Below are positions 13,783-51,430 of a stretch of DNA of 61,928 nucleotides, in pieces. The position numbers and the translations under genes were made by a program. Source of the stretch: Thermoanaerobaculia bacterium (lineage in GTDB: Bacteria; Acidobacteriota; Thermoanaerobaculia; Gp7-AA8); NCBI GenBank assembly GCA_035688915.1, contig DASSMK010000245.1:1-61928 (forward strand). The letters are read 5' to 3'. How positions within the stretch are numbered: the first letter of the stretch is position 1; each line of letters starts with the position of its first letter. The notes below the pieces were generated by a model. The model was not told the DNA's origin. It saw only the letters and a list, made by a program, of their open reading frames with translations, and ran no database searches.

Positions 13783-14232
13783 TCAGATGCCGTTCATGTA
13801 GCGGCGGAGGAACTGGATGTACTTCGGATCTTCGTCCGCGAAGATGTCGGGGCCTCCCGCCATGTAGGCTCGGGCCAGCTCGTCTTTGGCACGCTCGACG
13901 TTCTTTAGTTCGTACTCGACCTCTCCGAGCCGGAGATGCATGAACGCGTTGCCGAGTGCGTCCGGGCAGAACATTGCATGCTGCAGCGTCTGCCGCGCTT
14001 CCTCGTGGCGGCCGAGAATGTAGAGGACATCACCGATGGCGGCGAGCACCCATGTCGACGCCTCCCAGTCCTCGATCGGCGCTGGCAGCATGGCCAGCGC
14101 CGATCGAAAACGTTCGAGTGCCGGTTCGTACTGGCCCGTGTCGACGAGCGCCTCACCTGCGTTGGTCGTAGCGACGAGGCGTTCGTAGAGCGCGTCGTCC
14201 AGTGCTCTTGGCGATCTCTTTTTGATCATCAA
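13783..14232 (-). CDS. TPR-like putative immunity protein of the upstream RHS toxin
   Basis: 149-aa ORF whose ATG overlaps the RHS stop (ATGA at 14229-14232). Helical TPR-like repeats (YEPALERFRSALAM..., GRHEEARQTLQHAM..., ELKNVERAKDELARAY). Confidence 0.7.
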   Translation of the reverse strand: MMIKKRSPRALDDALYERLVATTNAGEALVDTGQYEPALERFRSALAMLPAPIEDWEASTWVLAAIGDVLYILGRHEEARQTLQHAMFCPDALGNAFMHLRLGEVEYELKNVERAKDELARAYMAGGPDIFADEDPKYIQFLRRYMNGI

Positions 14233-20200: not shown

Positions 20201-21227
20201 CGAATGCGGATACGTCACCGAGCCAGTAGACCGGCTGCTGCGCGTCCGACTTGGCAGTGAAGCCCTGCGCGGAGTTGACGTTCGTGAACTGCGTCGGCTT
20301 GTAGCACTTCGTCGCCCCGCATTCCTGAATGGCAGTGACGCGGCTGCGTGCCGTGGCCGCGGAGTACTCGTACGTCAGGTTCCAGGAGCGGAGATCGTTG
20401 CCGTCGTCGTCATAGGTAACCACTCGCGACAGCCGCTGCGTGACGTGCTCCGGCGAGCCGCCGGAGTAGCGCGAAATCGCATCGGTGCGGTCTTCGTATT
20501 CGAAGCCGATGCGTTTCGCTCCTGCGTATTCGATCGACGATACGTAATAGCCGGCGGCTCCATCGTGCGTGTACTTCGTGACTACGTTGACGCCGCGGAT
20601 GTCCTTCCATTCGTCGACGCTCCAGACGCGGATCGCGCCGTCCGCGCGTCCTTCGGCCGGGATCCGTCCGCCCGTTGCACCGGCCGATCCGCCGAACTCG
20701 AGCTGCGCCCCGTCTTTGTTTGTAGCGGTGAAGTAACAGGGTCCGTCGCCACAGAGGCCATGTGACACGAATTTCGTCCAGGTATCGCTCTCCGTCCTAT
20801 ATTCCGCTCCGTCGGCGCCGTATGTGCCGGACGTGGCAATGAGACTCATGCCGGAGATGCAGAACCGGTCGCCGCTGTCGTACGAAACGGTACCGGCAGT
20901 GGCGTGAGCGCGGACCGTCGCGCCACAGCGGCCGATCGCGTCAATGCCATTCAATGACCAGCCGACGCCCAGCAGGCCATTCCCCCGCTCGCTGTTGTAA
21001 GTCAGCGACAACGAGGGTGCGACGCCGTTGATGCCGGGAGGTGCCTCGATCGGTACTCTATACGTCGCCGCACCGGCCACGACGTCGAACGAACCCGCTG
21101 GCGTGCCGGCAATGAGCGTCGATGTCTGCGCCTGCATCTCCGCGTTCGGCTCGAGATGCACGGTGCCGGACACGATGAGGCTGACCGTGGCCAAGGCGAG
21201 AACTCTCCCCAGTCCGTGACGAGTCAT
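14229..21227 (-). CDS. Polymorphic toxin, 2332 aa. Domain order: signal peptide; SpvB/TcB-like domain; FG-GAP/VCBS propeller; RHS/YD-repeat shell; RHS core; Gly-zipper TM region; PT-HINT; HNH/EndoVII (GH-E-like) nuclease tip.
   Basis: SpvB-type motif TYRVPIEAPPGINGVAPSLSLTYNS. Repeated DVNGDGxxD FG-GAP motifs. Many YD repeats (YxYDxxGR). Core GARYLDPRTGRFTTPDP...NPYLYGGNNPASIIDPDG. Hint domain from CSSFLAGQTVLMADG to ...VLVHN. Tip motifs MGHNPVDAV...NYIFEYGPLNSSNG. Confidence 0.9.
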   Translation of the reverse strand: MTRHGLGRVLALATVSLIVSGTVHLEPNAEMQAQTSTLIAGTPAGSFDVVAGAATYRVPIEAPPGINGVAPSLSLTYNSERGNGLLGVGWSLNGIDAIGRCGATVRAHATAGTVSYDSGDRFCISGMSLIATSGTYGADGAEYRTESDTWTKFVSHGLCGDGPCYFTATNKDGAQLEFGGSAGATGGRIPAEGRADGAIRVWSVDEWKDIRGVNVVTKYTHDGAAGYYVSSIEYAGAKRIGFEYEDRTDAISRYSGGSPEHVTQRLSRVVTYDDDGNDLRSWNLTYEYSAATARSRVTAIQECGATKCYKPTQFTNVNSAQGFTAKSDAQQPVYWLGDVSAFDMTGDGRDDIVNATYQSTYDHTGYWATNVYVSVHASTGRTALKTSAPQTLDLGPAIGGREPAIAIVPNDVDGDGRGDLVVMRRLPTNDPKKTRMQFYSYRSDGTMFGAAGSSDLIEDAGISDFSFFKLVSGDVNADGLSDVMVVTISSITPYLSAGDGTFTKGAQYSYANDTDSSVYLPMDVNGDGRMDVVAASPSGFVTFRAQNDSFIYDSTYKHSTFGFLESTKFFSADVNGDGLSDLIAATVSLLDTKIETFISTGAAGTNETRFVAGPTFVLQGPVTTVVAANFNDDKLADLAMIQPVNGKTAVTPLYNRNGHSWELASEAQTTLDGSMGRWPFGVLSADLDGDANDDLLVATNANFASFDLSRLYPNASQADLVSTITNAAGGKTKIEYAPLTDSSVYTKGTATEPGVRDVVVPLPVVSSYSVDDGQKGTYKYTETYTGARVGAHGEGWLGFSGITTTDQDKRSTTIQYSQKWPVVGQATTVTNYNKAKIALTSTTITYADNAADDMQSRGIHQIVPVMETATTYAGQKNGAAEFSLRRVYHYGKRGNVVRIDELGDPTDLTDDHYLCMRYDNDDAEWRLGYLRAQKDTLSYINCVNFLGDAPGFATGDLQLRHLTYDGAMNTASEAFWDDHRGDWLRNEYTYDQYGNLTAVTTADGAQTTYEWDDSHRFMTRSTSPDTPNGKHLVESYEYDTRFGTITKHTDWNGNVTEYSFDEMGRPVSVTGPDPQGVGKVLLTTHWESTAGGTVMVQRTRPDWTSSDFASIPQGQPATDSWHWRRTYYDALDRPYKTDRKGDSDGAVVIEQELQFDGAGRVSSTGAPSLSGKTTAWTTIDYDDYDRPVKITRPDKVAETFVYTRGARTVTHTRAAGTDDAVTDIQKYDPRGRLIQRTLPNESTLTYTYDPLGQPLSIAAGSDQRLTTLDWDSIGRIHAHTTPDAGTRTYTYDIDGRVESITDGAENRIDYTWDLLGRPQTIIESGDSIAAATTTFAFDGNTSNGLGHLTSVQRTADDITVSHQFGYDAYGHVTSGLAVIANWSFLYGYDFSPEGRVTSEHFPDRSRLDFGYTAGGNPSTHTLVDVNGTQKTYATLSGYTAYAMPALETFDNTVSVSHDYYDEAKLSGGAISTITVHRQRDGIDLTKRQYQWNRLYNLITESAPSVAIGSYVYDTPPMSYLKSATVGPTTNSFTYDRAGNRLSISAGAGPRPYAYDQSNDRMLNGPGLQMTWNGNGTLHTLLRDGDLYAYRYHFDGRLSSVQQGQTPKRALYAEDFAGDIVYRQLTGRGGDQDTSTFLVMPDYEIVLYPETGRVISTKTIQGPYGPMVAITENANLPAIPGGGKAAIDHEMRGRMYDHSPDPWLRVRSLFDRWFARTLRLAPLGTAAVSLLAAVLFLLISGRPASPLPRRRRLFASVARLLVLTVLLQGVNPAWASLSPGPNGAGNPIIGVRYFAQDQAGNTIAVTATDGVHRASLRYLPFGLLEPTVTAGVDDSRPKFGGKRFDEASGFYDFGARYLDPRTGRFTTPDPAGQYMNPYLYGGNNPASIIDPDGRFAFLIPALIVAGAALGAYMGGATVNHRWNPAHWDWTSGSTYAGIFGGAALGAVGFGIEAGVASATVLGTAAAAAGITSAELGMAGAVFVGAGEGAAYTAMGGGDSEEVLEGALMGGLLGGLGAGLTPMLGHGASALSRAVRGKSADAAETVGAEAAEAADVAESSVPCSSFLAGQTVLMADGSLQPIEQVRRGQSVSGYALGGEGHGRFSVYETHQGETNHVTRIITADGTEILATPSHRFRGYGMGWIAASELTSTISLVDDRGQPVPIRSVETTATSTPAPVYNVSVEKAEDYYVSPARVLVHNVKASCRRLSVGATPGKWSATGQAVLRNMKSANLAEKRAGAWWVRVPVKNGGPRVWMKLDRNIHMGHNPVDAVTAWNEEFWEYGARSPEVRAWMRDPANYIFEYGPLNSSNGASLKAKYRRPSGWSGHWPGPDN

Positions 21228-21328: not shown

Positions 21329-21664
21329 ATGAGTCGCATGCCTTCCGTCTCCACGCCCGAACCGCCGTACTACGCCGTGATCTTCACGTCGACGCGCACC
21401 GAGGGCGACGACGGCTACGGCGACATGTCGGTGAAGATGAACGAGCTCGCCGCGCAGCAGCCCGGCTTCCTCGGCGTCGAATCCGCCCGCGGCGCCGACG
21501 GCCTCGGCATCACCGTCTCGTACTGGGAAAGCGAAGAAGCGATCGCGAACTGGCGGAAGAACGTGGAGCACCGCGTCGCGCAGACACACGGGCGCGGTAG
21601 GTGGTACGACCAGTTCGTGACGCGCGTGGCGAAAGTGGAGCGGGTGACGCGCTTCAGCCGCTGA
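21329..21664 (+). CDS. Antibiotic biosynthesis monooxygenase (ABM) domain protein
   Basis: About 110 aa with ferredoxin-like ABM features (YYAVIFTS...GFLGVESARGADGLGITVSYWESEEAIANWRKNVEH). Alternative ATG at 21338. Confidence 0.65.
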   Translation: MSRMPSVSTPEPPYYAVIFTSTRTEGDDGYGDMSVKMNELAAQQPGFLGVESARGADGLGITVSYWESEEAIANWRKNVEHRVAQTHGRGRWYDQFVTRVAKVERVTRFSR

Positions 21665-22448
21665 CGATGCGCTCTGCGCTCGTGTAGACGTTGAAGCGCT
21701 CACCGCGCACGAAGCCGATGAGCGTCACGCCGAATTCGTGCGCCAGCTCGACGGCGAGCGTGGATGGCGCGCCAACGGCGGCGAGGATCGGGATGCCCGC
21801 CACAATCGTCTTCTGCACGATCTCGAAGCTCAGGCGGCCGCTCACCACCAGCGCGTGCTGCGCGAGCGGCGTCGCCGATTCGAGAAAGAACGAGCCGATC
21901 ACCTTGTCGACCGCGTTGTGGCGTCCGACATCTTCCCGCGCGCGGAGGATGTTGCCGTCCGCATCGAAGATTGCCGCGCCGTGAATCGCGCCGGTAGCGT
22001 CGAACGACGTTTGCTGCGCGCGCAGCAGTTCGGGCATGGCGATGATCTTTGCGGCGTGCATGCGCAGATCAGATTGCACGGGCGCAGTTTGCACGCGCAG
22101 CGCGTCGATCGACGTCTTGCCGCAAACGCCGCACGATGATGTCGAGTAAAAGTGACGCTGCAATCGCTGCAGATCGAGCTTCACGCCGTCGCGCAATTGC
22201 ACGCGCACCACATTCGGCGAGCCCCAATGGCGAATTGATTCGATTTCATCCGCCGCGTGCAGAATCGACTCGCTAAAGAGAAATCCTGCGGCGAGCTCAA
22301 AGTCTTCACCGGGCGTGCGCAGCGTGACGGAGACCGGCTTCTCGCCGATGCGAATCTCCAGCGGCTCTTCCACCGCCAGCACGTCCTCGTCGCGCGACGC
22401 GGCTTCGCCGCTGACGCGGGTGATGGGAACGCGCGAGGTGGGCTGCAT
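21654..22448 (-). CDS. fdhD: Formate dehydrogenase accessory sulfurtransferase FdhD
   Basis: 264 aa with the SSCGVCGK motif and a C-terminal GRHNAVDK... region. Divergent from fdhA. Confidence 0.9.
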   Translation of the reverse strand: MQPTSRVPITRVSGEAASRDEDVLAVEEPLEIRIGEKPVSVTLRTPGEDFELAAGFLFSESILHAADEIESIRHWGSPNVVRVQLRDGVKLDLQRLQRHFYSTSSCGVCGKTSIDALRVQTAPVQSDLRMHAAKIIAMPELLRAQQTSFDATGAIHGAAIFDADGNILRAREDVGRHNAVDKVIGSFFLESATPLAQHALVVSGRLSFEIVQKTIVAGIPILAAVGAPSTLAVELAHEFGVTLIGFVRGERFNVYTSAERIVSG

Positions 22449-22616
22449 GAGGTGCGGATTCTACGCATGCGCACAACAATTCGCGCGCACTGTGGAAACG
22501 CACCACGAACGTTGGAGCGGCGGGCGCCCTCGCCCGCCGGTGTGCGTGGACGGGCGAGTCGCCCGCCACCAGTCGCAAGCGCCGCTACCGGCAACGACCT
22601 CGCATACACTTCGTGC

Positions 22617-25600
22617 ATGCTCGCCGAGCTTCTCCTGAAGTGGCCGCTCATTCGCCAGTTGCGCGATCGGAAGGACGGCACCGGAGCGGAGTCGATGTCC
22701 GAGCGCACGCGGCAGCTCGTGCCGAAGAATGACGGCGCACAAGTCGCGCGATCCGTCTGCCCGTACTGCGCCGTCGGATGTGGTCAACTCGTTTACCATC
22801 GCGAAGGCCGCGTCATCAGCATCGAAGGCGATCCGCAGTCGCCCATCTCGCGCGGCCATCTCTGTCCGAAAGGCGCCGCGAGCCACGAACTGGTCACTCA
22901 TCCGAACCGCGCCACGACCGTGAAGTACCGCGCGCCGCACGCGAAGCAGTGGGTCGAGCTCGATCTCGAGAGCGCGGTGGAGATGGTCGCGGACCGCATC
23001 TGGTCGACGCGCGAGCGCACTTTCGACGACGAGCATCGCCACACCACCGGCCTCGCGCACCTCGGCGGCGCCACGCTCGACATCGAAGAAAACTATCTGA
23101 TCAAGAAGCTCTTCACCGCCGGATTGGGGATGGTCTGCCTGAGCAATCAGGCGCGCATATGACACAGCTCCACGGTGCCCGGTCTGGGCACCTCTCTCGG
23201 CCGCGGCGGCGCGACGACCGCGCAGCAGGACCTCGCCAATTCCGACGCCATTCTGATCATGGGCTCGTCGATGGCGGAGAACCATCCGGTCGGCTTCCAG
23301 TGGGTGATCGAAGCGCGCGAGAAGAACGGCGCGAAGATCATTCATGTCGATCCGCGCTTCACGCGCACGTCGGCCATGTCGGATTACTGGCTGCCGCTCC
23401 GCGCCGGCAGTGATCTGATTTTTCTCGGCGCGCTCATTCGTTACGTGCTCGAAGAACAGCGCGATTTTCGCGAGTACGTCGTGCGCTACACGAACGCCGC
23501 CGTGATCGTGCGCGACGACTTTCGGGACACCGAGGAGCTGGGCGGGATTTTTTCGGAGGCGGAGACTTGGTTGTATCCGGGCTCGCCCGGCGGCTCGCGC
23601 GACACAGGCCATCGCGGCGAAGGACAAGGCACGCCTCAGACGCCGTCCGATCCGCCGCGCGATGAAACGCTGCAGGATCCGCGGTGCGTCTATCAAGTGA
23701 TGCGACGCCACTTCGCGCGCTACACGCCCGAGCTGGTCGAGCAGGCGTGCGGCATTCCGCGCGAGCGGTTCCTCGAGATCGCGGACATCTACACAAGCGC
23801 GTCCGGTCCGGAGAAAACCGGCGCGATCTGCTACGCCGTCGGCTGGACGCAGCATTCGAGCGGCGTGCAAATGATTCGCGCCGCGTCGATCCTGCAACTG
23901 CTCCTCGGCAACATCGGACGTCCCGGCGGCGGCATCATGGCTCTGCGCGGCCACGCGTCGATTCAAGGATCGACGGACATCCCGACGCTCTACGACATCC
24001 TGCCCGGTTACTTGCCGATGCCGACGGAGAAGGAGCGCGATCTCGCCACGTATCTGAAAAAGCACAAGGCGGAGAAGGGGTGGTGGTTCAACACCGACAA
24101 GTACCTCGTCTCGCTGCTCAAGGCGTATTACGGCGACGCGGCCACGCGCGAGAACGACTTTGGCTACGACTGGCTGCCGCGCCTCACCGGCGATCACTCC
24201 TATTTTGGCTACTGGCTGGACATGGCCGATGGGAAGCTCGAGGGGTTGATCGTGATGGGGCAGAACCCGGCGGTCGGTTCGCCGAACGCGAAGCTCGAGC
24301 GCAAGGCGCTGGCGCAGTTGCAGTGGCTCGTCGTGCGCGACATGGTGGAAGTGGAGACGGCGACGTTCTGGCTCGATTCACCGGAGGTCGCGAACGGTGA
24401 GCTGCGCGCCGAAGACATCGCGACGGAGGTGTTCTTCTTCCCGGCGGCATCGCATGTGGAGAAGGAAGGAACGTTCACGAACACGCAGCGCCTGCTGCAG
24501 TGGCGGGAGAAAGCGGTCGATCCGCCGGGCGACGCGCGCAGCGAACTGCAGTTCATGGTGGCGCTGGGACGGAAGCTGAAAGCGAAGGCGACCAGCGCGG
24601 CGCGCGACGCGGGTCTGCGCGCGCTGACGTGGGACTACGCAGATGAAGATGCGGAAGAGGTGCTGCGCGAGATCCATGGCCCACCATCCATCAAGCATTT
24701 CGGCGAGCTGAAAAACGATGGCAGCACCTCGTGTGGCTGCTGGATTTACTCGGGCGTGTTCGACGGCTTCAATCGCGCGAACGCTCGCGAAGCGAAGGGC
24801 CGCTACGCGCATGGTTGGGGATACGCGTGGCCGCTCGATCGCCGCATTCTGTACAACCGCGCGTCGGCGCGTCCGGACGGCAAGCCGTGGAGCGAGCGGA
24901 AGGCGCTGGTGTGGTGGGATGAAGAGAAGCGCGAGTGGGTGGGCCACGACGTCGCCGACTTTACGCGCGGCAAAGCGCCGGACTACAAACCGAAGCAGGG
25001 GAGTGGCGGCGACGAAGCACTCGCCGGCGACGCGCCGTTCATCATGCATCCGGACGGCATGGGCTGGCTGTGGGTGCCGTCGGGTTTGAAGGATGGGCCG
25101 TTGCCCGCGCACTACGAGCCGCTCGAATCGAACGTGCGCAATCCGCTGTACGCGCAGCAGAGCAACCCTGCCGCCGATCGGATGGAGCGTCCCGACAACG
25201 TCTACGCCGCTTCGCCCGACGCGCGTTTCCCGTACGTGCTCACCACGTATCGCTTGACCGAGCATCACACCGCCGGCGGCATGTCGCGCACGCTCGCGCA
25301 TCTCGCGGAACTGCAGCCGGAGCTCTTCGCGGAAATGAGTCCCGAGCTGGCGGACGAAGTGGGCGTGCAGAACGGCGAGATGGTCACGATCTCGACGGCG
25401 CGCGCATCGATCCGCGCGCGAGCGCTCGTCACCACGCGCATGCCCTCGCTCGACATTGACGGAAAGCGCGTGCATCAGGTCGGCCTGCCGTATCACTGGG
25501 GACCGCGCGGCCTGGTGAAAGGCGATGTGGTCAACGACCTGCTGGCGATTTCCGAGGAGCCGAACGTGAAGATCTTCGAATCGAAGGGATTGACGTGCAA

Positions 25601-25622
25601 TCTGGTGCGCGCGCAGGCGTAG
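22617..25622 (+). CDS. fdhA: Selenocysteine-containing formate dehydrogenase alpha subunit (molybdopterin oxidoreductase), UGA-Sec at 23160-23162
   Basis: ORFs 22257..23162 and 23175..25622 share one frame. The junction reads QARI-U-HSSTVPGLGTSLGRGGATT, the canonical Sec site. N-terminus MLAELLLKWPLIRQL and the Fe-S motif CPYCAVGCG. No Tat signal. Confidence 0.92.
23163..23200 (+). promoter_or_regulatory. Bacterial SECIS element
   Basis: Hairpin GGTGCCC (23174-23180) / GGGCACC (23186-23192) with apical loop GGTCT. It starts 11 nt after the UGA and resembles the E. coli fdhF SECIS apical GGUCU loop. Confidence 0.8.
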
Positions 25623-26267
25623 TCATGATGCCCACGTAGCGGCGAGCTCTGCTCGTGATCTTTCGTAGTGGTTGCAGTCGAGGTTCCCCTTTGCGTCGCC
25701 AGGAATGCCCGGGACCGCGTTCGGCGTGAGGCCGTTGCGGCTGTCGGTGTACTGCCACAGCCAGAAGTCAGTCCAACTCGGCTGAATGACGGGTTCTTCG
25801 TTGTAGTGCGCCAGCCACAGGCGGTGACTGCCGAAGAACGCATCCCGTTTTTTGCGCAGCGCGTCTTTGATCGTGTGCCCGCTGTACAGAACCGGTTTCC
25901 GGCCGAGGCGTGCGGCGAGCTGTTCGAGGAACTCGCGGGCTTGCGTGAGAGTCATCTGGTTGCCCGCCGTGTCCTCAAAGTCGAGAGCGACGAGCGTCTC
26001 GTCGTCCGGTTCACTCCGCCGCAGGAAGTTCTCCACTTGCTTCGCGACGTTCGCATGCGTGCCCCAGTGATACGCGCCCCACAGCAGGCCCGCGTCCCGC
26101 GCAAGCGTCCGGCGCGCGGCGTACGTTTCATCTTTGCCGGTCGCGCCGGTCGTCGCTTTGTGAATGATTCCCCAGACGCCGGCTTCAGCGGCTGCGTGGA
26201 AATCCTCGACAACGTCGCCGTGGGACAGGTCAACGACACGAACCGCACGATCGATCACGACTCGCAC
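25623..26267 (-). CDS. Glycoside hydrolase family 25 lysozyme (muramidase), no signal peptide
   Basis: VVDLSHGDVVEDFHAAAEAGVWGIIHKATTGATGKDETY...GLLWGAYHW...ALDFED...LWLAHY...WLWQYT...GNLDCNHY matches the GH25 pattern. Confidence 0.8.
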   Translation of the reverse strand: MRVVIDRAVRVVDLSHGDVVEDFHAAAEAGVWGIIHKATTGATGKDETYAARRTLARDAGLLWGAYHWGTHANVAKQVENFLRRSEPDDETLVALDFEDTAGNQMTLTQAREFLEQLAARLGRKPVLYSGHTIKDALRKKRDAFFGSHRLWLAHYNEEPVIQPSWTDFWLWQYTDSRNGLTPNAVPGIPGDAKGNLDCNHYERSRAELAATWAS

Positions 26268-26370
26268 CTCCGACAGCTGGAGCGCTGATGCGCTCTATCT
26301 ATTAGGAGTGCCAGCAGTCGCATGTTTCCCTTCCCACCGCGACAACTTTCCGCGTGCTACTCTCGCGCGC

Positions 26371-27153
26371 ATGCCGACCACCGGCTTCTTCACCGATTCC
26401 ACGCTTTGCATAGGCTGCAAAGCCTGTGAGGTGGCGTGCAAGGAGTGGAACGGAGTTCCGGACGACGGCTTCGTCTTCTCCGGCCTCTCCTACGACAACA
26501 CGCTCGGCCTCGGCCACTCCACCTGGCGCCACGTCAAGTTCGTCGAGTTCGGCACGGAGATCGGGCGCGGCGGCAATGCGGTGGAAGGGGCGACGTGGCA
26601 GTTCTCGTCGGACGTTTGCCGGCACTGCGAAGTGGCCGGCTGTCTCGAAGCGTGTCCCACCGGCGCGATCGTGCGGACGGAGTTCGGCAGCGTCTACATC
26701 CAGCCCGACATCTGCAACGGCTGCGGCTATTGCGTCGTGACTTGTCCGTTCGGCGTCGTCGATCGTCGGCCTGACGACGGGCGCGCGTTCAAATGCACGT
26801 TCTGCTACGACCGCCAGAAAGCGGGACTCGTCCCCGCGTGCGCGAAAGCGTGTCCGACCGAATCGATTCTCTTCGGCGATCTCGATGAGCTGCAGCGCAA
26901 AGCCGACGAGCGCATCGAGAAACTGCATGCGATGGGGATGCGCGACGCCACGATTTGGAATCCGAAAGAGACCTCCGTCGGCGGTACGCACGCGTTCTTC
27001 CTCGTGCGAGGCGAGACGGAGCGCTACAACCTGCCGAAGACGCCGCAGGTGCCGACCACATTGCTGAAGGCCGGCTGGTCGTCGGCGGCCGTCGCCGCAG
27101 GTGCGATCGCAGTCGCGTCGCTCCTCGCGTTTGCGTTCGAGGCGCGGAAGTGA
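26371..27153 (+). CDS. Formate dehydrogenase iron-sulfur (4Fe-4S dicluster) subunit with a C-terminal membrane anchor
   Basis: MPTTGFFTDSTLCIGCKACEVACKEWN..., CRHCEVAGCLEACP, CNGCGYCVVTCP, CTFCYDR...ACAKACP. Hydrophobic C-terminus. Confidence 0.9.
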   Translation: MPTTGFFTDSTLCIGCKACEVACKEWNGVPDDGFVFSGLSYDNTLGLGHSTWRHVKFVEFGTEIGRGGNAVEGATWQFSSDVCRHCEVAGCLEACPTGAIVRTEFGSVYIQPDICNGCGYCVVTCPFGVVDRRPDDGRAFKCTFCYDRQKAGLVPACAKACPTESILFGDLDELQRKADERIEKLHAMGMRDATIWNPKETSVGGTHAFFLVRGETERYNLPKTPQVPTTLLKAGWSSAAVAAGAIAVASLLAFAFEARK

Positions 27154-28052
27154 AAGCGACCGAAGCGCGGCTCGACGAAATCCGCCGCACCGCAGCCGCT
27201 CTTCCCGCGAGCGCGCCGAAAGACTCGTATTACGACCTCCCGCTGCTCAAGGCACCGGTGTGGACGTGGGAAATCCCGACGTACTTTTTCATCGGCGGTG
27301 CGGCCGGCGCTGCCGCAGTGATCGGCGCCGCCGCGCGCATGACGGGCGCGAACGAGAAGCTCGTACGCGACGCGCGCTGGATCGCCGCCATCGGCGCCAA
27401 TCTCTCCACGCCGCTCCTCATCGCCGACCTCGGACGTCCCGAGCGTTTCCTCTACATGCTGCGCATCTTCAAGCCGCAGTCGCCGATGTCCGTCGGCGCG
27501 TGGATCGTCGCCGCATTCGGCGGCGCGTCGACGGCCGCGCTGTTCGTGCCGACGAAAACGCTGAAAGATCTCGCCGCGTTTGCATCCGCCGCAACGGGCC
27601 TGGGCATGGCCACGTACACCGGCGTGCTCCTCGGCGCCACCGCCATTCCGGTGTGGGCCGAGCACGTGGCGACGCTGCCGATTCACTTCGGCGCATCCGC
27701 GCTCGGCTCCGCCGCATCGCTGCTCCAACTGCGCGGCCACGACACGCGCGCCATCCGCTCGCTCGCCCTCGGCGCCGCGGTCGTAGAGACCGCGACCAGC
27801 ATCGCTATGGAACGTCGTGACCACGCCGCAGACGACGCGACAAAACGCACCACGCGCCTCGGCGGCATCCTGGCCGGACCGGTGCCGCTCGCGCTGCGTC
27901 TCCTCGGCGGACGCTCCAAAACGATGCGCCGCATGGCCGCGGTTTCCGCGCTGGCCGGATCGCTGATCACGCGGTTCGAGTGGGTGGCCGCCGGCAAAGA
28001 AAGCGCGCGAAATGCCGCCGCCGCGCTCGCTCCGCGCCGCGACTCGAAGTAA
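27150..28052 (+). CDS. NrfD/PsrC-like polytopic membrane subunit of the formate dehydrogenase complex
   Basis: GTG at 27150 overlaps the preceding stop (GTGA). About 300 aa with about 8 TM helices (YYDLPLLKAPVWTWEIPTYFFIGGAAGAAA...). Confidence 0.75.
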   Translation: MKATEARLDEIRRTAAALPASAPKDSYYDLPLLKAPVWTWEIPTYFFIGGAAGAAAVIGAAARMTGANEKLVRDARWIAAIGANLSTPLLIADLGRPERFLYMLRIFKPQSPMSVGAWIVAAFGGASTAALFVPTKTLKDLAAFASAATGLGMATYTGVLLGATAIPVWAEHVATLPIHFGASALGSAASLLQLRGHDTRAIRSLALGAAVVETATSIAMERRDHAADDATKRTTRLGGILAGPVPLALRLLGGRSKTMRRMAAVSALAGSLITRFEWVAAGKESARNAAAALAPRRDSK

Positions 28053-38415: not shown

Positions 38416-39834
38416 TTACCGCACCACCGCTTCCTGTCGCCGCTCGCGCTGGCGCCGTTCGTCGTCATCTTCCATCGCTTCGGTCACCACATCGCAAACA
38501 GCGCTCTCCGCGTCCTGCGGTGCGCCCGCGGTTTTCGCCAGCAGCGCGCGCAACGCAGGAGGTGCGACGAACGTGGTGATCATCACCATCAGCGCCACGG
38601 AGCTGTAGAGCCCCGCGGAGAGAAGGCCCGCGGAGAGGCCGAGCTGCGCGAAGATCAGACCGACTTCGCCACGCGGGATCATCCCGACGCCAATCACCAT
38701 CTTCCGCAGCGGTCTTCCAAACGCGAAGAAGCCGGCGAGCATTTTCCCCGCGATGGCCACGAGCGTCAGGAGAATGCCGACCACGAAGAACGGCCGCGTC
38801 GCCGGATCGAACGGATTGATCGCCTTCAAATCGACCGCCGCGCCGACGGAGACGAAGAAGATGGGGATGAAGAACTGCGCGACGTCGAAGACTTAGTGTT
38901 CGATGTCGCGGCCGCGGTCCGTCTTCGCGAGCACGAGCCCCGCGGCGAACGCGCCGATGATGAGCGCGGATCCGATCGCGGAGGCGAGCCACGCCAGACC
39001 GAAGGCGAACATGATCGACGCGAAGAAGAGCGCCTTTCCGACGCGCAGCCGCGTCAGGAGCTTGATCAGCGGTGGCGCGAGCCACGAGCCGATCACGATC
39101 GCAAGAACGACGAAGCCGAACGCGACGCCGAAGATTTTGCTGACGCCGAGCACCGTCATCCGCTCGCCCGCGGCGATGGCGCTGATCACGGTCAGCAGGA
39201 CGAGGCCGAGGATGTCGTCCACGACGGCGGCGCCGAGAATGACCTGCGATTCATCCGACTTGAGATGGCCGAGATCGGACAGCACTCGCGCCGTGATGCC
39301 GACGGATGTGGCGGTGAGAGCCGCGCCGAGGAACACCGAGACCGTCGCCGGATAGTGCAGCCACATCCCGACGCCGTAGCCCGCGGCGAACGGCAGAACC
39401 ACTCCGGCCAGCGCGACGGCGAGCGACGCGCCACCGACGGAGAGCAGCCGGCCGATGTCGGTCTCCAATCCGATCAGGAAGAGCAACAGCAGCACGCCGA
39501 GCTCCGCGAGGACGTGCAGCAGAGGATCGTGCGTATCGATCAGATGGAGTCCGGAGACGCCGATGACGATGCCGCCGACCATCTCGCCGAGAACGGCCGG
39601 TTGTCCAATACGCTCGGCCAGCTCGCCGAACAGCTTGGCGGCGGCGAAGATCGCCACGAGAGCGATGAGAAGCGCGGTGATGGTCACGAGGCACGTCCCG
39701 CGGGAACGGCGAACGGGCGGCGCTGCGGCGTGAGGGAGTGCGGCCGCGGATTGCGAAGAATGTGATGTCGAGCCATGACGGAACTGCCGGAGTTGTCTCC
39801 CGGCATCTCTGCGAGCGGCGGCCCGACCACTCAC
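38416..39834 (-). pseudogene. CPA2-type cation:proton antiporter (Kef/NapA-like) interrupted by a single in-frame TAA
   Basis: ORFs 38893..39834 and 38416..38829 share one frame. The junction reads ...KTDRGRDIEH-TAA(38893-38895)-VFDVAQFFIPIFFVSVGAAVDLKAINPF..., colinear with Na+/H+ exchanger family proteins. The likely true start is GTG 39687 (VTITALLIALVAIFAAAKLFGELAE). Confidence 0.7.
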
Positions 39835-40063
39835 TGTTCCTGCGGAGAGGCATTCCCCGCACCCGTCGAAGCGTTGTTACGAACCGCGCGCCCGGCGTGG
39901 AAAATTGCGCAGCAACGTTCGATTGCCGGGCGCGCGCGATCAGGTTAGCCGATCGCACTTTGCGGCGCGAGAGAGCCGCACCGGCAGCGAGAGCAGCGCC
40001 GCACCACAAGCCCTCGCGCCACCCCAGTCCGCGCGCAGCGGCGATCGGTTGCGTGCGCACCGG

Positions 40064-46147: not shown

Positions 46148-47131
46148 CTACGCGCGCGGCAACGCGTTCAGCGCACCTTCCTGGTCGGGCAGCAGCGCCA
46201 GTGCGGTGACGCGCTTCTGCAATCCGGCCAGACCGTGCACGACCACCGGCTCGTGAAAACGCACCAGCCAGCGCGGCTCGTCGAGGATCGCGACCTTCAG
46301 CACGTCTTTGCGCTTCCAGTCCGCTTCGCCGTGCACGGCTTCGACCGCGGCGATGTTGGCGAGCGGCACGTCCACGCTCCAGCGCAGACCGAAGCGCAGA
46401 TGAAGCATGTCCGCGCTGATCGTGGAGCGGCGCAGACGCAGCGCGTGGTAATCGCCGAACAGCCAGAGCACAGCGTAGACGTCGAATGAAGTCCACACCC
46501 ACGCGGCGATGGGGCTCCAGCGCAGAAGCAAGAGGTGCATGCCGAATGCTTCGGCGGTCACCACCACGAGAATGCAGGCGAGGATCGAGCCCCAGCCGTT
46601 GCGCTGGTGGAACGTGAAGCCTTCCGATTCATCCGGTTTGCGGCGCCAGGTAAAGAAAGCGTAGTAGAGCACCGCCACTTCGCTCGCGACGATCTCCGCC
46701 GCGCGGTTGTTGCCGAACATCTCGCGCGCGGCAATGGTCATGCGCGCCAGCGGATCGGCGTCGCCAAACCGGCCGCGCAGTTTCGACATCCGTCGCACGA
46801 GCAGCACGATGGTCACGACTTCGAGCGGTGCGGAGAGCAGATGCAGATCGCGCAGAAAGAACTGCTGGCCGCGCGGAATCACCAGTGCCGCCAGCGTCAT
46901 GCAAACCACGAACACCGGCGCGATCGTGATCGGCCGCACTCCACGGCCGCGCACGACGAAGAACCAGTACAGCAGCGGGATCGTGATCGTCAGGTCGAAC
47001 GTCGCGCCCCATGCCGCGATATCCGGCACGGTGACGAAGAGACGCGAGCGGAGGATGGCGATGCACGCCGCCGTCACGGTCAGTGCGGCGAGGAGAAAGA
47101 GAGTGGCGGGGTTGCGTTGGGTGCGCGTCAT
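46148..47131 (-). CDS. Hypothetical polytopic membrane protein (third gene of the Trx-HMA operon)
   Basis: Its ATG at 47131 overlaps the upstream stop (ATGA). About 6 TM helices are followed by a soluble C-terminal domain. Confidence 0.65.
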   Translation of the reverse strand: MTRTQRNPATLFLLAALTVTAACIAILRSRLFVTVPDIAAWGATFDLTITIPLLYWFFVVRGRGVRPITIAPVFVVCMTLAALVIPRGQQFFLRDLHLLSAPLEVVTIVLLVRRMSKLRGRFGDADPLARMTIAAREMFGNNRAAEIVASEVAVLYYAFFTWRRKPDESEGFTFHQRNGWGSILACILVVVTAEAFGMHLLLLRWSPIAAWVWTSFDVYAVLWLFGDYHALRLRRSTISADMLHLRFGLRWSVDVPLANIAAVEAVHGEADWKRKDVLKVAILDEPRWLVRFHEPVVVHGLAGLQKRVTALALLPDQEGALNALPRA

Positions 47132-48102
47132 CGCGATTTGACCGTCACAGAGAGACCATACGTCCACTTCTGCTCGAAAGTTTCCTCTTCAGCGAGGCTG
47201 CGTGTCCAGAGCTCGCGATAAACGTTCGGCGTAATTGTGAGAGCGCCGACCGGCAGCGCCACGTCGACGCGCAGGCCGCCCGTTTGGAATCCGCTGCCTT
47301 CATCGATCTCGCCGTGCCACCGGCCGATCGACTGGTACTGCCCGGCCAGACGCGTGGAGAGCGTCGCGCGATCGATGCGGAACGAGCGGCCCGCCGACCA
47401 GAGCACGAGATTCGGTGCGCGGAAGCCTTCGCGATTCTCGTAGAGCGTCAGCCGCGTTTCGGCGCCCGCGCTCCACTGCGCGCGACGCCATTGCGCGGAG
47501 AGCAGCGGCGCGAACGTGCCGGTGCCGAATTGCATGTGCTCGTGCGTCACGCCCGCGCGTCCGGCCGCGATCGGATCGCTTTCGATGCGACCCACCGGCA
47601 GCGACAGGCCACCGCCGAAGATCCACTCGCCGCGCTGCACGTCGAGCATGACCGACGGATCGCTGATGCCGGTCAGCGTTTCGGTGCGGTGATGGATGTC
47701 GCCGTACGGCGGCGTGAATGGCGCGCCGTCGAGCGTCGTGTAGCGCACGCGCATGTCCTTCACGTCATACGGCAGGCGCAGCACGAGTTGCATGGCGTCG
47801 CGGATGCCGTACGCCGCGGTCATCTCGTAATGCGCGAGGCCAACGCGCACGTGGTGTTCGTGCTCGGGAATGGTCATCGTCGCGCACTCGGGCGCTACGT
47901 CCGGGCACGTCGCTACGTGCGAAGTCGTGAGCGTGCCCCACGCGCTGTCGAAAGTGATGCGCCAGGCGCCTTGCGGCGCGATCGAGACGTTACCTGCTCC
48001 GCCGGAGAGGTTTGGATTCGCTCAAGCCGGTCAGGCGTATGCGGACGGCACGATGATCAGCGCCATCAGCGCGAGCGCCGCGAACAGCAGCACGCGCTTC
48101 AT
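47128..48102 (-). CDS. Secreted His-rich protein with two in-frame UGA codons right after the signal peptide (candidate selenoprotein, U-P-A-U), or alternatively a pseudogene
   Basis: Its ATG at 48102 overlaps the Trx-HMA stop (ATGA). Signal peptide MKRVLLFAALALMALIIVPSAYA is followed by TGA (48033-48031), CCG GCT, TGA (48024-48022). The same frame then stays open for about 298 more codons to 47128. The annotated ORF 47128..47877 is the in-frame 3' part. Confidence 0.5.
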
Positions 48103-48764
48103 CGCGCTTCCGCCTTCGTGAATCCGTCCAGCACCTGATCCCACATCCCGCCCGTCACCGCCGCCACGAACTTGCCGTTGCGATCGTAGATGCGCACGTA
48201 CGGCAGCGCTTCGGCGCGGAACTCGCGCGTGGCCTGCACCGCGGCGGGCGTGTCCCACTTGCCGACATTCACGCGCCGCAGCGCGAAGCCTTCGTGCGTG
48301 TGCATGTAATTGCGGATGCGCATCTCCAGCACGCTACAGGGACCGCACCAGTTCGCGTAAAAATCGACGATCGTTACTTTGCCCGGCACGAGCAACGTCT
48401 TCAGATCGAGCTTCTTCCCCTCTTCGTCCGTCTGGACGTCGAGCGCCTGATTCGCCGCCTCGGGCAGCGGCTGGAGGTCTTTGCGCGTTTCGCCGGGGAA
48501 AACCGCTTCGAAGCCGAGGTTGGTCAGCGCTTTATGCAGCTGTTCGCGATCGAAGCCGGCCGGAACATCGACAGTGGCCACGCCCGCTTTCCAGTCGAGC
48601 TTCACGCTCTTCACGCCGGGGACGGCGCGCAGCGCCTTCACGATCGGCGCGCTGCAGCCTTCGCAGTCGATGCCGACGACGGTGAACGTCATCGTGTCGG
48701 CAAAGGCGGGAACGGCGAGCGCGAAAAGGAAGATGGCCGCGAGTCGTTTCATCGACAGCGCCAA
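48099..48764 (-). CDS. Secreted fusion of a heavy-metal-associated (HMA) domain and a thioredoxin-like domain
   Basis: Signal MKRLAAIFLFALAVPAFA. HMA segment TFTVVGIDCEGCSAPIVKAL. Thioredoxin motif DFYANWCGPCSVLE. Alternative start at 48752. Confidence 0.85.
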   Translation of the reverse strand: MALSMKRLAAIFLFALAVPAFADTMTFTVVGIDCEGCSAPIVKALRAVPGVKSVKLDWKAGVATVDVPAGFDREQLHKALTNLGFEAVFPGETRKDLQPLPEAANQALDVQTDEEGKKLDLKTLLVPGKVTIVDFYANWCGPCSVLEMRIRNYMHTHEGFALRRVNVGKWDTPAAVQATREFRAEALPYVRIYDRNGKFVAAVTGGMWDQVLDGFTKAEAR

Positions 48765-48793: not shown

Positions 48794-51430
48794 TCAAACG
48801 ACCGGGCGCGCGATCTCGAGCGTGCGCGGCTGGAAGACGGCCGTTTGCAGATACTCGAACGCGTTCGCAGCCGGGAGCGGCTTGCTGAACAGGTAGCCCT
48901 GCATCAGATCGCACGCGTAGTGGCGGAGGAAGTTGTACTGCTCCTCCGTCTCCACCCCTTCCGCCACGACGCGCAGCTGCAGCGTGTGGGCGAGATTGAT
49001 CACGTACGACACGATCGCCGCGGCCGTTTCGTCGCGCGTGACGTCGCGCAGAAACTCTTTGTCGATCTTGACCGTGTCGATCGGGAAGTCCTTCAGGTAG
49101 ATGAGCGACGACTGGCCGGTGCCGAAATCGTCCACGGCGATGCTGACGCCGAGCTCTTTCAGCTCGCGCAGCACTTTCGTGGTCTGCTCGATGTTCTGCA
49201 TGGCCGCGCTTTCGGTGATCTCGAGCTGCAGCAGTTGCGCGGGCAAACGGTTCTGTTCGAGCGCGTCGCGCACGACGTCGACGAGTCCCGGCTGCTGCAA
49301 CTGCACGGCCGAGATGTTCACCGCCATCTTCAGCGCCGTGAGACCGCGCTGATGCCATTCATGCAGCTGTTTGCACGCGGTGCGCAGCGCCCATTCGCCG
49401 ATCGGCACGATCATTCCGGTCTCTTCCGCGAGCGTGATGAACTCGGCCGGCTCGACGATGCCGCGATTCGGATCGCGCCAGCGCAACAGCGCTTCGAGCG
49501 AAACGATGCGGCGCCGGGCGCGGTCGTAGATCGGTTGGTAATACAGCTCAAGCTGCTGGCGCTCGATGGCGTGATGCAGATGCTGCTCGAGCGCGAGCCG
49601 CCGCACGTAGCGCTCGTTCATGCTGGCGGTGAAGAGCTGCGTCTGATTGCGGCCGAGCTCCTTCGCGCGATACATCGCCGCGTCCGCGCATTTCAGCAGC
49701 GATTCCACGTCGTCGCCGTCGGTCGGATAGAAGCTCACGCCGATGCTGGCAGTGACGAAGAGATCGTGACCGTCGACATCGAATGGCTCGGCGAGTGAGC
49801 CGAGGATCTTGCGCGCCACACCGGCGACGGCTTCGGTGTTCGTGACTTCGGGAAGGAGGATGCTGAACTCGTCGCCGCCGAGGCGGGAGATGGTGTCGGA
49901 GGCGCGGAGCGAGGCCTGGAGCCGCTCCGCGACGCGCGCGAGCAGCGTGTCGCCGGTGGTGTGCCCGAGTCCGTCGTTCACGAGCTTGAAGTGATCGAGG
50001 TCGAGATACATCACCGCCATGGCCACGTGATTGCGCCGCGCGTGTTGCAGCGCGTTGACCACGCGGTCGCGGAAGAGCAGGCGATTGGGCAGGCCGGTCA
50101 GCGAGTCGTAGTACGCGTGGTATTCGAGCTGCCGCTCGGTTTCCTTGCGCTGCGAGACATCGCGGTAATTGAGCACGATCGCGCCGACCGAGGGCTCGTG
50201 CAGCAGGTTCTGGCTGAAGCCTTCCAGCCAGATCCAGGTGCCGTTCTTGTGGCGGAAGCGCAGCTCGCCGTGCGCTTCGTGATTCGGCGACGCGACGACG
50301 GTATCGAAGACGCGCCGCGAAGACGCGAGCTCGCGCGGATGCACGAACTCGAGGAGCGAGCGGCCGAGGAGATCGTGTTCGCTGTAGCCGAGAAGATGCT
50401 GCGTGGATGAGCCGGCGAATGAGAAGCGGAGATCGCCGTCGAGCAGCGCCACGCCGCTCCAGCTTTTTTCGACGATGGTGCGGAAACGTTTCTCGCGGCG
50501 CTCCAGCTCACGCTCCGCGCGCTTGCGTCCGGAGATGTCGCGCACGAACGCGGTGAATGTCTGGTCGATCGCCGCGATGGTGATTTCGACCGGCATTTCT
50601 TCGCCGGTCGCGCGGCGTGCTTTCGATTCGAGGCGGCGCCGCGGCGTGTTCGAGGCGAGCGGCTCGCTGAGCATGCCGTCAGGCAGCGGCCGTCCGAGGA
50701 CATCGCGCGAGGCGAGGCCGAACGTCACTTCGGCCTGCGGATTCCATTCGATGACATTGCCCGCCGCGTCGACACTGATCACCGCGTCGAGCGCGCTCGC
50801 GATCAGCTGTCGCAACCGCGCTTCCGATTTGCGCAGCGCCAGTTCGGTCCGGCCGCGCGCGAGCGCTTCGCCGAGGATGTTGGCGGTAGCGACGAGGAAG
50901 CCGAGCTCGAAGTCGGCGAACGTGCGCTCGCTGTCGGAGTAGGCGAGGAGCACGCCCCACGGACCGTACTGCGTGCGCACGACCACGCCGGCGCCGCTGC
51001 GGATGTGGTGGTAGTCGCGAAGATGCGACGCCTTGAAGCGCGTCTCCGTGTCGAGATCGGGAAAGGTGATCGGGCCGTCTGCGAGCAGCGTGACCATCGC
51101 CAGCGCTTCATCTTCATCGCCATCGCGATCGCAGCGGCTGAAGGTGGCGTTCGCGCCGATGGCTGCGCGGACGAGCATGTTGCCGGAGCCGGAGAGCTCG
51201 AGCGCGCGGCAGTGGCTCACGCGCAGCGTCAGCTCGACGAGCGCGCAGGCCTGGCCGAGGAGGATGAAAGGGTCGACGCCGGTGAGAGCGGCCTGGCCGA
51301 GCTCCGCGATGGCGGTTTGCTGCCGGTCGCGCGCTTCGATTTCAGACTTCAGCCGCGCAAGCTCCGCGTCCGCCGCAGAACTCTGCGCTTCGCCGCCGCG
51401 GATGAGGTGGAGCGGCTGCTGCTCACTCAT
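48794..51430 (-). CDS. GAF-PAS-PAS-GGDEF-EAL signalling protein (c-di-GMP turnover)
   Basis: 878 aa. GGDEF site RLGGDEFSIL, EAL domain EALLRW...QLEITES...DDFGTGQSSL, and upstream PAS and GAF-like modules. Confidence 0.92.
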   Translation of the reverse strand: MSEQQPLHLIRGGEAQSSAADAELARLKSEIEARDRQQTAIAELGQAALTGVDPFILLGQACALVELTLRVSHCRALELSGSGNMLVRAAIGANATFSRCDRDGDEDEALAMVTLLADGPITFPDLDTETRFKASHLRDYHHIRSGAGVVVRTQYGPWGVLLAYSDSERTFADFELGFLVATANILGEALARGRTELALRKSEARLRQLIASALDAVISVDAAGNVIEWNPQAEVTFGLASRDVLGRPLPDGMLSEPLASNTPRRRLESKARRATGEEMPVEITIAAIDQTFTAFVRDISGRKRAERELERREKRFRTIVEKSWSGVALLDGDLRFSFAGSSTQHLLGYSEHDLLGRSLLEFVHPRELASSRRVFDTVVASPNHEAHGELRFRHKNGTWIWLEGFSQNLLHEPSVGAIVLNYRDVSQRKETERQLEYHAYYDSLTGLPNRLLFRDRVVNALQHARRNHVAMAVMYLDLDHFKLVNDGLGHTTGDTLLARVAERLQASLRASDTISRLGGDEFSILLPEVTNTEAVAGVARKILGSLAEPFDVDGHDLFVTASIGVSFYPTDGDDVESLLKCADAAMYRAKELGRNQTQLFTASMNERYVRRLALEQHLHHAIERQQLELYYQPIYDRARRRIVSLEALLRWRDPNRGIVEPAEFITLAEETGMIVPIGEWALRTACKQLHEWHQRGLTALKMAVNISAVQLQQPGLVDVVRDALEQNRLPAQLLQLEITESAAMQNIEQTTKVLRELKELGVSIAVDDFGTGQSSLIYLKDFPIDTVKIDKEFLRDVTRDETAAAIVSYVINLAHTLQLRVVAEGVETEEQYNFLRHYACDLMQGYLFSKPLPAANAFEYLQTAVFQPRTLEIARPVV

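Follow-up and report, generated by a model that had tools for sequence, protein, structure and literature searches.

How should a gene be read in which two UGA codons, two sense codons apart, directly follow a signal peptide? The question is raised by positions 48102-47128 on the minus strand of a stretch of 61,928 nucleotides (hereafter the window; G+C content 64.6%) from a Thermoanaerobaculia bacterium (assembly GCA_035688915.1, contig DASSMK010000245.1), where a preliminary description of the sequence had proposed a selenoprotein with a Sec-x-x-Sec motif (UxxU, with U for selenocysteine, Sec). Comparison with related loci and structure prediction point to one gene for a secreted selenoprotein, in which both UGA codons would specify Sec and the mature protein would form an outer-membrane β-barrel, coupled to a partner gene and, as we propose, acting in a metal relay. 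We put the probability of this reading, the best explanation we have, at about 0.85.

A reading frame with two UGA codons

The complete gene as re-read (47128-48102, minus strand) starts at the ATG at 48102-48100, which overlaps, as ATGA, the stop codon of the gene that precedes it, and first encodes a signal peptide (MKRVLLFAALALMALIIVPSAYA, 48034-48102) with an A-x-A motif at its end, directly before the first Sec. The sequence TGA-CCG-GCT-TGA (48022-48033, with UGA1 at 48033-48031 and UGA2 at 48024-48022) would then specify Sec-Pro-Ala-Sec and is followed by 297 sense codons (47131-48021) for the mature protein, that is, an N-terminal segment of about 20 residues (ANPNLSGGAG...) and a predicted 12-stranded β-barrel. 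The frame ends at the TGA at 47130-47128, inside a second ATGA junction. We thus confirmed what the preliminary description had stated of the start codon and its overlap, of the signal peptide, of the two TGA codons and of the frame that stays open to the junction at 47128-47131, and also that the only open reading frame (ORF) called mechanically (47877-47128, 249 amino acids) lacks a signal peptide.

Signal peptides of the n-h-c type were present in all related loci and end just ahead of U/C-x-x-U/C; in the window, cleavage would probably fall after A-Y-A. A lipoprotein reading of A-Y-A|U was considered and rejected, since on inspection positions -3 to -1 are unlike a lipobox, and the first Sec or Cys comes one or two residues later in many orthologues. 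The signal peptide is also found as a small ORF of its own (48031-48258, minus strand) that closes at the first TGA, with a counterpart of 35 amino acids in locus L084 (7923-8030). Such tiny signal-peptide ORFs closing at a TGA could serve as a signature of overlooked N-terminal selenoproteins.

A protein search with the read-through product, in which Cys was used as a placeholder for Sec, returned 393 relatives, all of them unnamed or 'hypothetical' and without Pfam domains. No signal peptide was found in the best 120 of these 393; they start at arbitrary M, V or L codons that fall inside the conserved block …WR.SFD.A.G.F.TSHVAECPDVAPECAT..IPPHEHH…, and their ORF calls are therefore truncated, as would be expected if an upstream in-frame stop codon had halted the gene callers each time. 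A species-level scan (one genome per species) gave 157 relatives; 80 loci were kept and their upstream DNA was read in frame. These loci come from Thermoanaerobaculia and other Acidobacteriota, Myxococcota/'Deltaproteobacteria', Planctomycetota, Dormibacterota, one metagenome-assembled genome (MAG) of the Sericytochromatia, and others. The motif tally covers 79 loci, namely 78 related ones and the window; two loci without the motif were truncated matches.

TGA-x-x-TGA was present in 74 of the 79 loci, as U-P-A-U (54 loci), U-A-G-U (8), U-P-G-U (7), U-A-A-U (3) and U-G-A-U (2), Cys-x-x-TGA in one (C-P-G-U, locus L056) and Cys-x-x-Cys in four (all C-A-G-C). Every one of these motifs is preceded by a signal peptide and followed by [A/S/G/T]-N-P-[N/S/A/Q]-[L/I]. 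The first codon of the motif is TGA in 74 loci, TGC in 3 and TGT in 2, the fourth is TGA in 75, TGC in 3 and TGT in 1, and neither TAA nor TAG nor TGG occurs at either position in any of the 79 loci. TGA is not reassigned, since it closes the focal ORF in 41 of 75 loci and, in the window, both this gene and the upstream gene. Variation in the codons between and behind the TGAs is concentrated at the third position (mean entropy by position 0.47, 0.50 and 1.22), which is the pattern of translated sequence under purifying selection. Between UGA2 and 47877, the region that the called ORF leaves out, there is conservation at the protein level and no conserved start codon. Every Sec member is truncated by gene callers; the Cys forms are continuous ORFs. 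The Sec/Cys pair test, which the preliminary description had proposed, was therefore positive, with homologues that carry TGA-x-x-TGA or Cys-x-x-Cys exactly here, after a signal peptide, and the orthologues with Trp or unconserved residues that would have spoken against it were not seen. Both in-frame TGAs are almost certainly read as Sec, as judged from the sequences.

The family is large. A profile search of 1.84 billion representatives gave 553 members at E <= 1e-3 (50% identity level), of which 398 were found at E <= 1e-10. Among the best 150 members, 11 are full-length proteins with a signal peptide and CxxC-xNP, and the other 139 start within the mature protein. The 11 full-length Cys forms have different motif types (CAGC, CAAC, CPAC and CPGC) and signal peptides of differing composition, suggesting several independent switches between Sec and Cys. 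A dense clade of Cys forms is found in Polyangiaceae/Labilithrix, all labelled 'hypothetical', and in the NCBI records the Sec members appear as truncated hypothetical proteins.

The SECIS-type hairpin and probable selenocysteine decoding

Downstream of UGA2 we identified a hairpin of the bacterial selenocysteine insertion sequence (SECIS) type, ACCUCUCC[GGC]GGAG(C)AGGU (47992-48011, minus strand; -9.1 kcal/mol), which has a stem of 4+4 base pairs with one bulge and a GGC loop (48003-48001) that lies 18 nucleotides from UGA2 and 27 nucleotides from UGA1. The hairpin starts 10 nucleotides 3' of UGA2, and this distance is 10-12 nucleotides across the Sec forms (ungapped alignment, 60 nucleotides from UGA1). 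The consensus for bacterial SECIS (bSECIS) elements comprises an apical loop of 3-9 nucleotides with G[G/U] in its first positions, an upper stem of at least 4 base pairs, a distance from UGA to loop of 16-37 nucleotides and a minimum free energy (MFE) of -7.5 kcal/mol or lower (PMC13188914). The window hairpin lies within all four of these bounds, for both UGAs.

A hairpin is present at the same place in 75 of 75 Sec-form sequences. Among the 58 unique sequences the loop is GGC in 33, GGUC in 10 and GGU in 8, it starts 17-18 nucleotides after UGA2 in 54, and the stem has 6-8 base pairs, mostly 7-8. The stems differ between clades (e.g. CCUCUCC[GGC]GGAGGGG, UCUCUCC[GGC]GGAGAGA, AACCUCCA[GGC]UGGAGGUU, GCUCCA[GGU]UGGAGC, ACCUGCC[GGUC]GGCGGGU or GGCAGGU, AUCUCCC[GGUC]GGGGGAU, UCUGUC[GGUC]GGCAGA and CCUCCCU[GCCG]AGGGAGG), with compensatory changes in which several stem levels alternate between UA, CG and GC. 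The stem pairs were tabulated per level; a single consensus dot-bracket was rejected because the loop register shifts by 1-2 nucleotides between clades. In the Acidobacteriota, covariation without exception links the third position of the Asn codon to its partner in the 3' arm (C:G in 23 sequences, U:A in 7, no mismatches; Fisher p = 5e-7, with sequences counted as independent and kinship ignored).

In a fixed segment of 26 nucleotides, 91% of the Sec forms reach an MFE of -8 kcal/mol or lower, versus 18% of 18,047 background segments from the same genes. The four Cys-x-x-Cys forms gave -3.4, -4.7, -5.6 and -7.3 kcal/mol in this segment and have no hairpin at the corresponding place. Over the 42 nucleotides after UGA2, Sec and Cys forms could not be told apart by their MFE in DNA so rich in GC. 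The hairpin that the preliminary description had offered as a candidate (48005-47975) is not conserved, and its 5' arm occupies the loop of the conserved one; the expectation of a conserved SECIS fold behind the UGAs was nevertheless borne out, by a bSECIS-compliant hairpin that covaries among Sec forms and that the Cys-x-x-Cys forms do not have. An Rfam scan of the window at the gathering threshold returned only an nhaA-I riboswitch elsewhere; Rfam is without a general bacterial SECIS model.

A UGA codon in another gene also connects the window to Sec decoding. The two halves of the fdhA ORF match positions 3-185 and 187-1047 of a formate dehydrogenase profile, and the TGA between them (23160-23162, plus strand) falls on the Sec position of the profile. 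It is followed, after a spacer of 11 nucleotides, by the canonical hairpin GGUGCCC[GGUCU]GGGCACC (23174-23192), so that codon and SECIS together span 23160-23192. The loop starts 18 nucleotides after the UGA, as it does for UGA2 of the barrel gene. Sec decoding of fdhA, as assumed in the preliminary description, is thus supported, and the Sec-dependent fdhA with its canonical SECIS suggests that the Sec machinery is present in this genome; fdhA is the only indication of the trait. The gene is part of a formate dehydrogenase cluster (21654-28052) with genes for FdhD (21654-22448, minus strand), the Sec-containing FdhA (about 22257-25622), a 4Fe-4S subunit (26164-27153) and an NrfD-like membrane subunit (26955-28052).

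The selenoprotein case from the window alone is weak, and it is the comparative evidence that settles it. Long open frames are frequent in the window because of its G+C content of about 65%; the window hairpin by itself is marginal against shuffled sequences (z = -1.9) and gave z = +0.7 in its context of 51 nucleotides; its distance is canonical for UGA2 only, UGA1 being 9 nucleotides further away; and no selA, selB, selC or selD gene, nor any tRNA, was found in the 61,928 nucleotides. These points weigh against the reading of both UGAs as Sec, and three other explanations draw on them.

If the frame were that of a pseudogene or contained an assembly or sequencing error, the two TGAs would be nonsense mutations, or the real gene would be the 249-residue ORF from 47877, which is indeed all that gene callers return, in DNA in which long frames open easily at 65% G+C. 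Such an explanation would, however, have to account for TGA-x-x-TGA at the same place in 74 independent loci of several phyla, never as TAA or TAG, for a stretch between UGA2 and 47877 that is conserved as protein without a conserved start, for an outer-membrane barrel whose necessary signal peptide is encoded upstream of the TGAs, and for Cys forms that are uninterrupted ORFs. The positive Sec/Cys pair test therefore excludes it for practical purposes, and we leave it next to no probability. Reading of the UGAs without selenium, by a reassigned code (Trp or Gly) or by near-cognate suppression (Trp or Cys), would agree with the lack of visible Sec machinery genes in the window, but TGA serves as the ordinary stop for this gene, for its neighbour and for 41 of 75 orthologues, Cys is the one residue that takes its place in the motif and Trp and Gly never do, the SECIS-type hairpin with the spacing of fdhA covaries and vanishes in the Cys forms, and fdhA in the same window needs Sec decoding; we consider this explanation highly improbable. 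In a third explanation the protein is a selenoprotein in part, with UGA2 decoded efficiently and UGA1 acting mostly as a stop or decoded poorly, so that little full-length protein is made or expression is gated by selenium. The hairpin at 18 nucleotides from UGA2, as in fdhA, and at 27 nucleotides from UGA1 would fit, as would the fact that the sole mixed form is Cys-x-x-Sec (L056) and never Sec-x-x-Cys. On the other hand, the first position is TGA in 74 of 79 loci, and a codon that mostly aborted translation would hardly have been conserved to this extent; 27 nucleotides fall within the published range of 16-37 nucleotides (PMC13188914), and further UxxU selenoproteins of bacteria are generally accepted. 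Partial decoding is in our view unlikely, and in the reading with two Sec residues the decoding of UGA1 is assumed. At the level of sequence, comparison of the loci thus shows that Sec and Cys alternate, that a SECIS hairpin is present, that the region is translated throughout and that the gene is linked to the partner described below.

The predicted barrel, its partner gene and the genomic context

An AlphaFold2 (AF2) model of the mature protein, made with an alignment of 83 sequences, has a predicted local distance difference test score (pLDDT) of 92.3 and a predicted template modelling score (pTM) of 0.87 and consists of 12 long antiparallel strands connected by alternating long loops and two-residue turns. 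The mature protein is thereby predicted with high confidence to be a 12-stranded outer-membrane β-barrel; the signal peptide and the alternating loop and turn topology are those of such proteins. Its closest matches in the PDB are 4rl8, the COG4313 channel Pput2725 (E = 8e-10, template modelling (TM) score 0.57-0.62, identity about 12%), and FapF, with TM-scores of 0.55-0.63 and E of about 1e-9 over the COG4313 and FapF matches; FadL, OmpG and autotransporter barrels rank lower. No family was found for the read-through protein in scans of Pfam (E up to 0.1) and NCBIfam (E up to 0.01).

The preliminary description had drawn attention to the His-rich motifs of the protein. The motifs exist as described, and the homologues keep their His residues without exception. 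Seven invariant His residues (H35, H54, H56, H110, H111, H160 and H162) lie in or beside the long loops, several of them in motifs with further invariant residues (PPYGDIHHR with H110 and H111, and HEHxQFGxG with H160 and H162), as do the motif DEGSGF and a conserved Cys pair (C39/C46). The highly conserved long loops also carry acidic residues and would, by standard barrel topology, lie opposite the termini. A subclade of Sec forms (P0057, P0058, P0064, P0066, P0075, L015 and L014) is without the Cys pair of the CPDVAPEC motif in loop 1 (e.g. …SHVADDPALPPHEHH…), and the presumed disulfide is therefore dispensable.

The barrel gene is associated with a conserved partner gene. Directly upstream of the barrel gene, and ATGA-coupled to it, lies a gene (48099-48764, minus strand) for a secreted fusion protein with its own signal peptide, an HMA domain (GIDCEGC) and a thioredoxin domain (WCGPC), in agreement with what had been noted of this neighbour before. 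In 73 of 80 related loci, those with Cys forms included, an HMA-thioredoxin gene immediately precedes the barrel gene in the same orientation. The thioredoxin motif is conserved as WC[G/S/A/E]PC, and the metal-binding part differs by lineage, being a CxxC HMA domain, an HMA-like 'DDCC' form or a segment of the type C..HHPE…WC.EH…C..CHPDL. The window partner has weak matches to the MerP, CopZ and TlpA models.

Some variation among the partners deserves mention. Those of Sec forms carry WCGPC, WCSPC, WCAPC or WCEPC and those of the Cys forms in L067, L074, L076 and L077 carry WCAAC, WCAAC, WCVPC and WCAVC, a shift that could reflect redox tuning or simply shared ancestry (four cases, all Polyangia-like). 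Several 'Deltaproteobacteria' partners (L050, L051, L054, L057 and L061) have adjacent Cys residues (GMGDDCC, GMDDPCC) replacing CxxC. In a Planctomycetaceae MAG (L075, CAZZBH010000081, 3100-3900, plus strand) the partner itself reads GIT-U-I-G-U in its HMA part and GPG-U-V-P-C in its thioredoxin-like part, so that this two-gene module would hold five Sec residues, three of them in the partner; a hairpin with a GG loop is located about 23 nucleotides past the second UGA of the UxxU in the HMA part.

Neighbourhoods were read from called genes with Pfam annotation, and greedy ORF picking was dropped because antisense ORFs win at high G+C content. In Myxococcota with Cys forms (regions L082:6790-7308, L083:6097-6633 and L083:6964-8004), genes upstream of the modules encode extracytoplasmic function (ECF) sigma factors that have a CxC motif and, at the C terminus, a Cys-rich tail. 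A CxC motif together with a Cys-rich C-terminal tail is a hallmark of the metal-sensing ECF44/CorE group (PMC4937300). The CorE2 operon of M. xanthus was tried as a characterised context and rejected, as it has a gene of the cation diffusion facilitator (CDF) family and not this barrel; only the hallmarks of the sigma factor carry over. In L083 the partner was called as a fusion of Cation_efflux (CDF) and thioredoxin, ATGA-coupled to the barrel, in which a C..HHPE…WCPEH…CLECHPDL segment replaces the HMA domain. Other contexts of Cys-form modules in Myxococcota include an adjacent CadD transporter (L082) and an island with ArsR, a chromate transporter and LMWPc.

Further genes lie near the barrel gene in the window. 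A PAS-GGDEF-EAL gene (cyclic di-GMP turnover; 48794-51430, minus strand) is found 30 nucleotides upstream of the HMA-thioredoxin gene, and the arrangement recurs in several Thermoanaerobaculia loci, with an overlap of 4 nucleotides in L081 (4616-7258), suggesting one operon. Downstream, the ATGA-coupled gene at 46148-47131 (minus strand) encodes a multi-pass membrane protein of 327 amino acids (327/339) for which no Pfam or NCBIfam match was found; it stands beside the barrel gene in only 3 related loci and is therefore probably outside the conserved module. Elsewhere in the window, the nhaA-I riboswitch (RF03057, 49.9 bits; 39813-39864, minus strand) is located directly upstream of a Na+/H+ exchanger gene (38893-39834, minus strand), which looks like an ordinary arrangement, and an ORF of 2332 amino acids occupies 14229-21227 (minus strand).

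Proposed function and relation to known systems

The gene linkage and the predicted structure suggest how the module may work. Translation would start at 48102, and SelB bound to the hairpin at 48011-47992 would deliver Sec-tRNA to UGA2 and, by assumption, also to UGA1. The precursor would be exported and cut by signal peptidase after A-Y-A, leaving a mature N-terminus at or within one or two residues of Sec-Pro-Ala-Sec, and the barrel would insert in the outer membrane with Sec-x-x-Sec facing the periplasm. There the thioredoxin domain of the partner would keep Sec-x-x-Sec reduced and its HMA domain and the diselenolate would exchange a thiophilic metal (of the Cu, Cd/Zn or Hg class). Through the N-terminal segment the metal may then be handed to the barrel lined with His, Asp and Glu, or taken from there, and it would cross the outer membrane or be held at it. 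The relay, its direction and its metal are all matters that we infer. Only tentatively do we propose that the N-terminal diselenol acts as a 'hook' (two Sec residues, one SECIS) that forms, with the HMA-thioredoxin protein, a selenium-based relay for moving or trapping thiophilic metals, and that it is the Sec form rather than the Cys form that prevails in the family, in many soil and freshwater bacteria. The description of the motif as a redox or metal site in the preliminary account is in line with the metal contexts and with a conserved partner of the HMA-thioredoxin type, and beyond that fit it keeps the rank of an interpretation.

Several observations sit less well with the barrel and the metal relay. 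The usual β-signal of such barrels, a C-terminal F or Y, is found in 91 of 120 relatives; the window protein ends in …VTVKSR (47128-47145, minus strand), without a C-terminal aromatic residue. Its closest relative, P0002, likewise ends without F or Y (…VTMRPR), and the stop codon in the window sits in the ATGA overlap with the next gene. The UxxU/CxxC-xNPNL segment of about 20 residues before strand 1 has low AF2 confidence, as has the CxxC segment in an AF2 model of a full-length Cys form, and by these models it could lie in the lumen or form a periplasmic tether. The neighbourhoods vary beyond the partner gene, and the metal contexts come mostly from the Cys-form loci in Myxococcota.

A serious rival keeps the gene model and gives the protein a redox function in place of metal transfer. 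The barrel would then be an outer-membrane oxidoreductase or metalloenzyme, with Sec-x-x-Sec and thioredoxin as a redox relay, and might for instance reduce a metal or metalloid, a peroxide or a disulfide at a His-bound metal. A thioredoxin dedicated to a UxxU or CxxC motif is the textbook setting for redox chemistry, selenoproteins are oxidoreductases in most cases, a catalytic metal could be bound by the invariant His/Asp/Glu cluster, and one of the contexts is the ArsR/chromate/LMWPc island. Yet the partner nearly always has a metal-binding domain too (HMA or the Cys/His-rich segment), the contexts include CDF and CadD transporters and sigma factors of the metal-sensing type, and neither an electron source nor an enzyme-like domain was found; we therefore regard the enzyme as possible but rather doubtful. 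It is very improbable that the protein is an uptake channel for hydrophobic molecules, similar to COG4313 and with an incidental UxxU. The COG4313 channel Pput2725 is indeed the best structural match, but at TM-scores of no more than 0.57-0.62 and an identity of about 12%, without a match to the Pfam family model even at E = 0.1, and nothing in COG4313 corresponds to the invariant His cluster, to UxxU or CxxC, to a partner of the HMA-thioredoxin type or to the metal contexts.

As a secreted selenoprotein of the outer membrane, the barrel would add a large overlooked family to the roughly 119 known prokaryotic selenoprotein families, in carriers such as Thermoanaerobaculia and Myxococcota that are not the classic selenoproteome-rich anaerobes. 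Current annotation pipelines miss both the gene structure and the selenium dependence of its Sec members. The rare two-Sec motif would stand here outside the cytoplasm, at the mature N-terminus of an outer-membrane barrel, and would offer a natural system for how one bacterial SECIS serves two UGAs. The strict pairing with the partner and the metal contexts point to selenium-dependent metal handling at the outer membrane, which, if true, would link the availability of selenium to metal tolerance in soils. No description of the barrel family was found in the literature searched. We class it with the bacterial selenoproteins, a known kind, as a family that had gone unrecognised, in which the insertion of Sec is ordinary and the placement of two Sec residues unusual. 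In a 2026 inventory of 119 prokaryotic selenoprotein families, UxxU occurs only in a Prx-like oxidoreductase, in the HMA protein NF041115 and in an FmdB-family protein, and the only outer-membrane selenoproteins are a TonB-dependent receptor and a GSU2204/MtrB-PioB family protein.

How does the gene compare with these and other known systems? Like the E. coli-type SECIS of fdhF and fdnG, and like that of the fdhA in the window, its hairpin lies in the coding sequence and has a small GG(U/C) loop about 18 nucleotides after the UGA, but here one hairpin apparently serves two UGAs 9 nucleotides apart, and its stem also encodes the conserved N-L-S-G-G (or L-Q-A-G-G, or L-P-V-G-G). With SelL and the Prx-like UxxU oxidoreductases the protein shares a diselenide-capable UxxU in place of CxxC, which is a rare two-Sec motif among prokaryotes. 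These proteins have a thioredoxin or peroxiredoxin fold with UxxU at the active-site helix, whereas the barrel has no thioredoxin-like domain and thioredoxin is provided by the separate partner; a likeness to SelL, which the preliminary description had named for its UxxU motif, did not hold, as no thioredoxin-fold match was found and an outer-membrane β-barrel is predicted. In NF041115, the HMA 'putative mercuric reductase' selenoprotein, U-x-x-U alternates with CxxC in a soft-metal context as well, but there it lies inside a small soluble ferredoxin-like HMA fold and not, as here, at the mature N-terminus of a protein without HMA; the NF041115 model has no match to the barrel and gives the window partner, which carries CxxC, 28.2 bits versus a cut-off of 95.

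Precedents for Sec in outer-membrane β-barrels of Gram-negative bacteria are the TonB-dependent receptor of the FCYXU type (NF049945) and the GSU2204/MtrB-PioB protein (NF041027). Those are other barrels (22-strand TonB receptors and MtrB/PioB porins) with one Sec each, at other positions, and neither model matches the barrel described here. COG4313 channel Pput2725 (4rl8) and FapF are its best structural matches, and the Pfam COG4313 family model, as stated above, fails to match it. The lumen of Pput2725 is occluded by an N-terminal segment that precedes strand 1 (PMC4493636). Proteins of the COG4313 and FapF types handle hydrophobic molecules or amyloid subunits and have no UxxU or CxxC, no invariant His cluster and no HMA-thioredoxin partner. 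The proposed function may be compared with the periplasmic thiol relays for metals, in which MerP passes Hg to MerT and TlpA reduces ScoI and CoxB for Cu. There, too, the CxxC-type site of a membrane-associated partner is the target of a secreted protein of the HMA or thioredoxin-like kind; in the module described here, HMA and thioredoxin are fused in one protein, an outer-membrane barrel would be the acceptor, and its motif is in most cases Sec-x-x-Sec.

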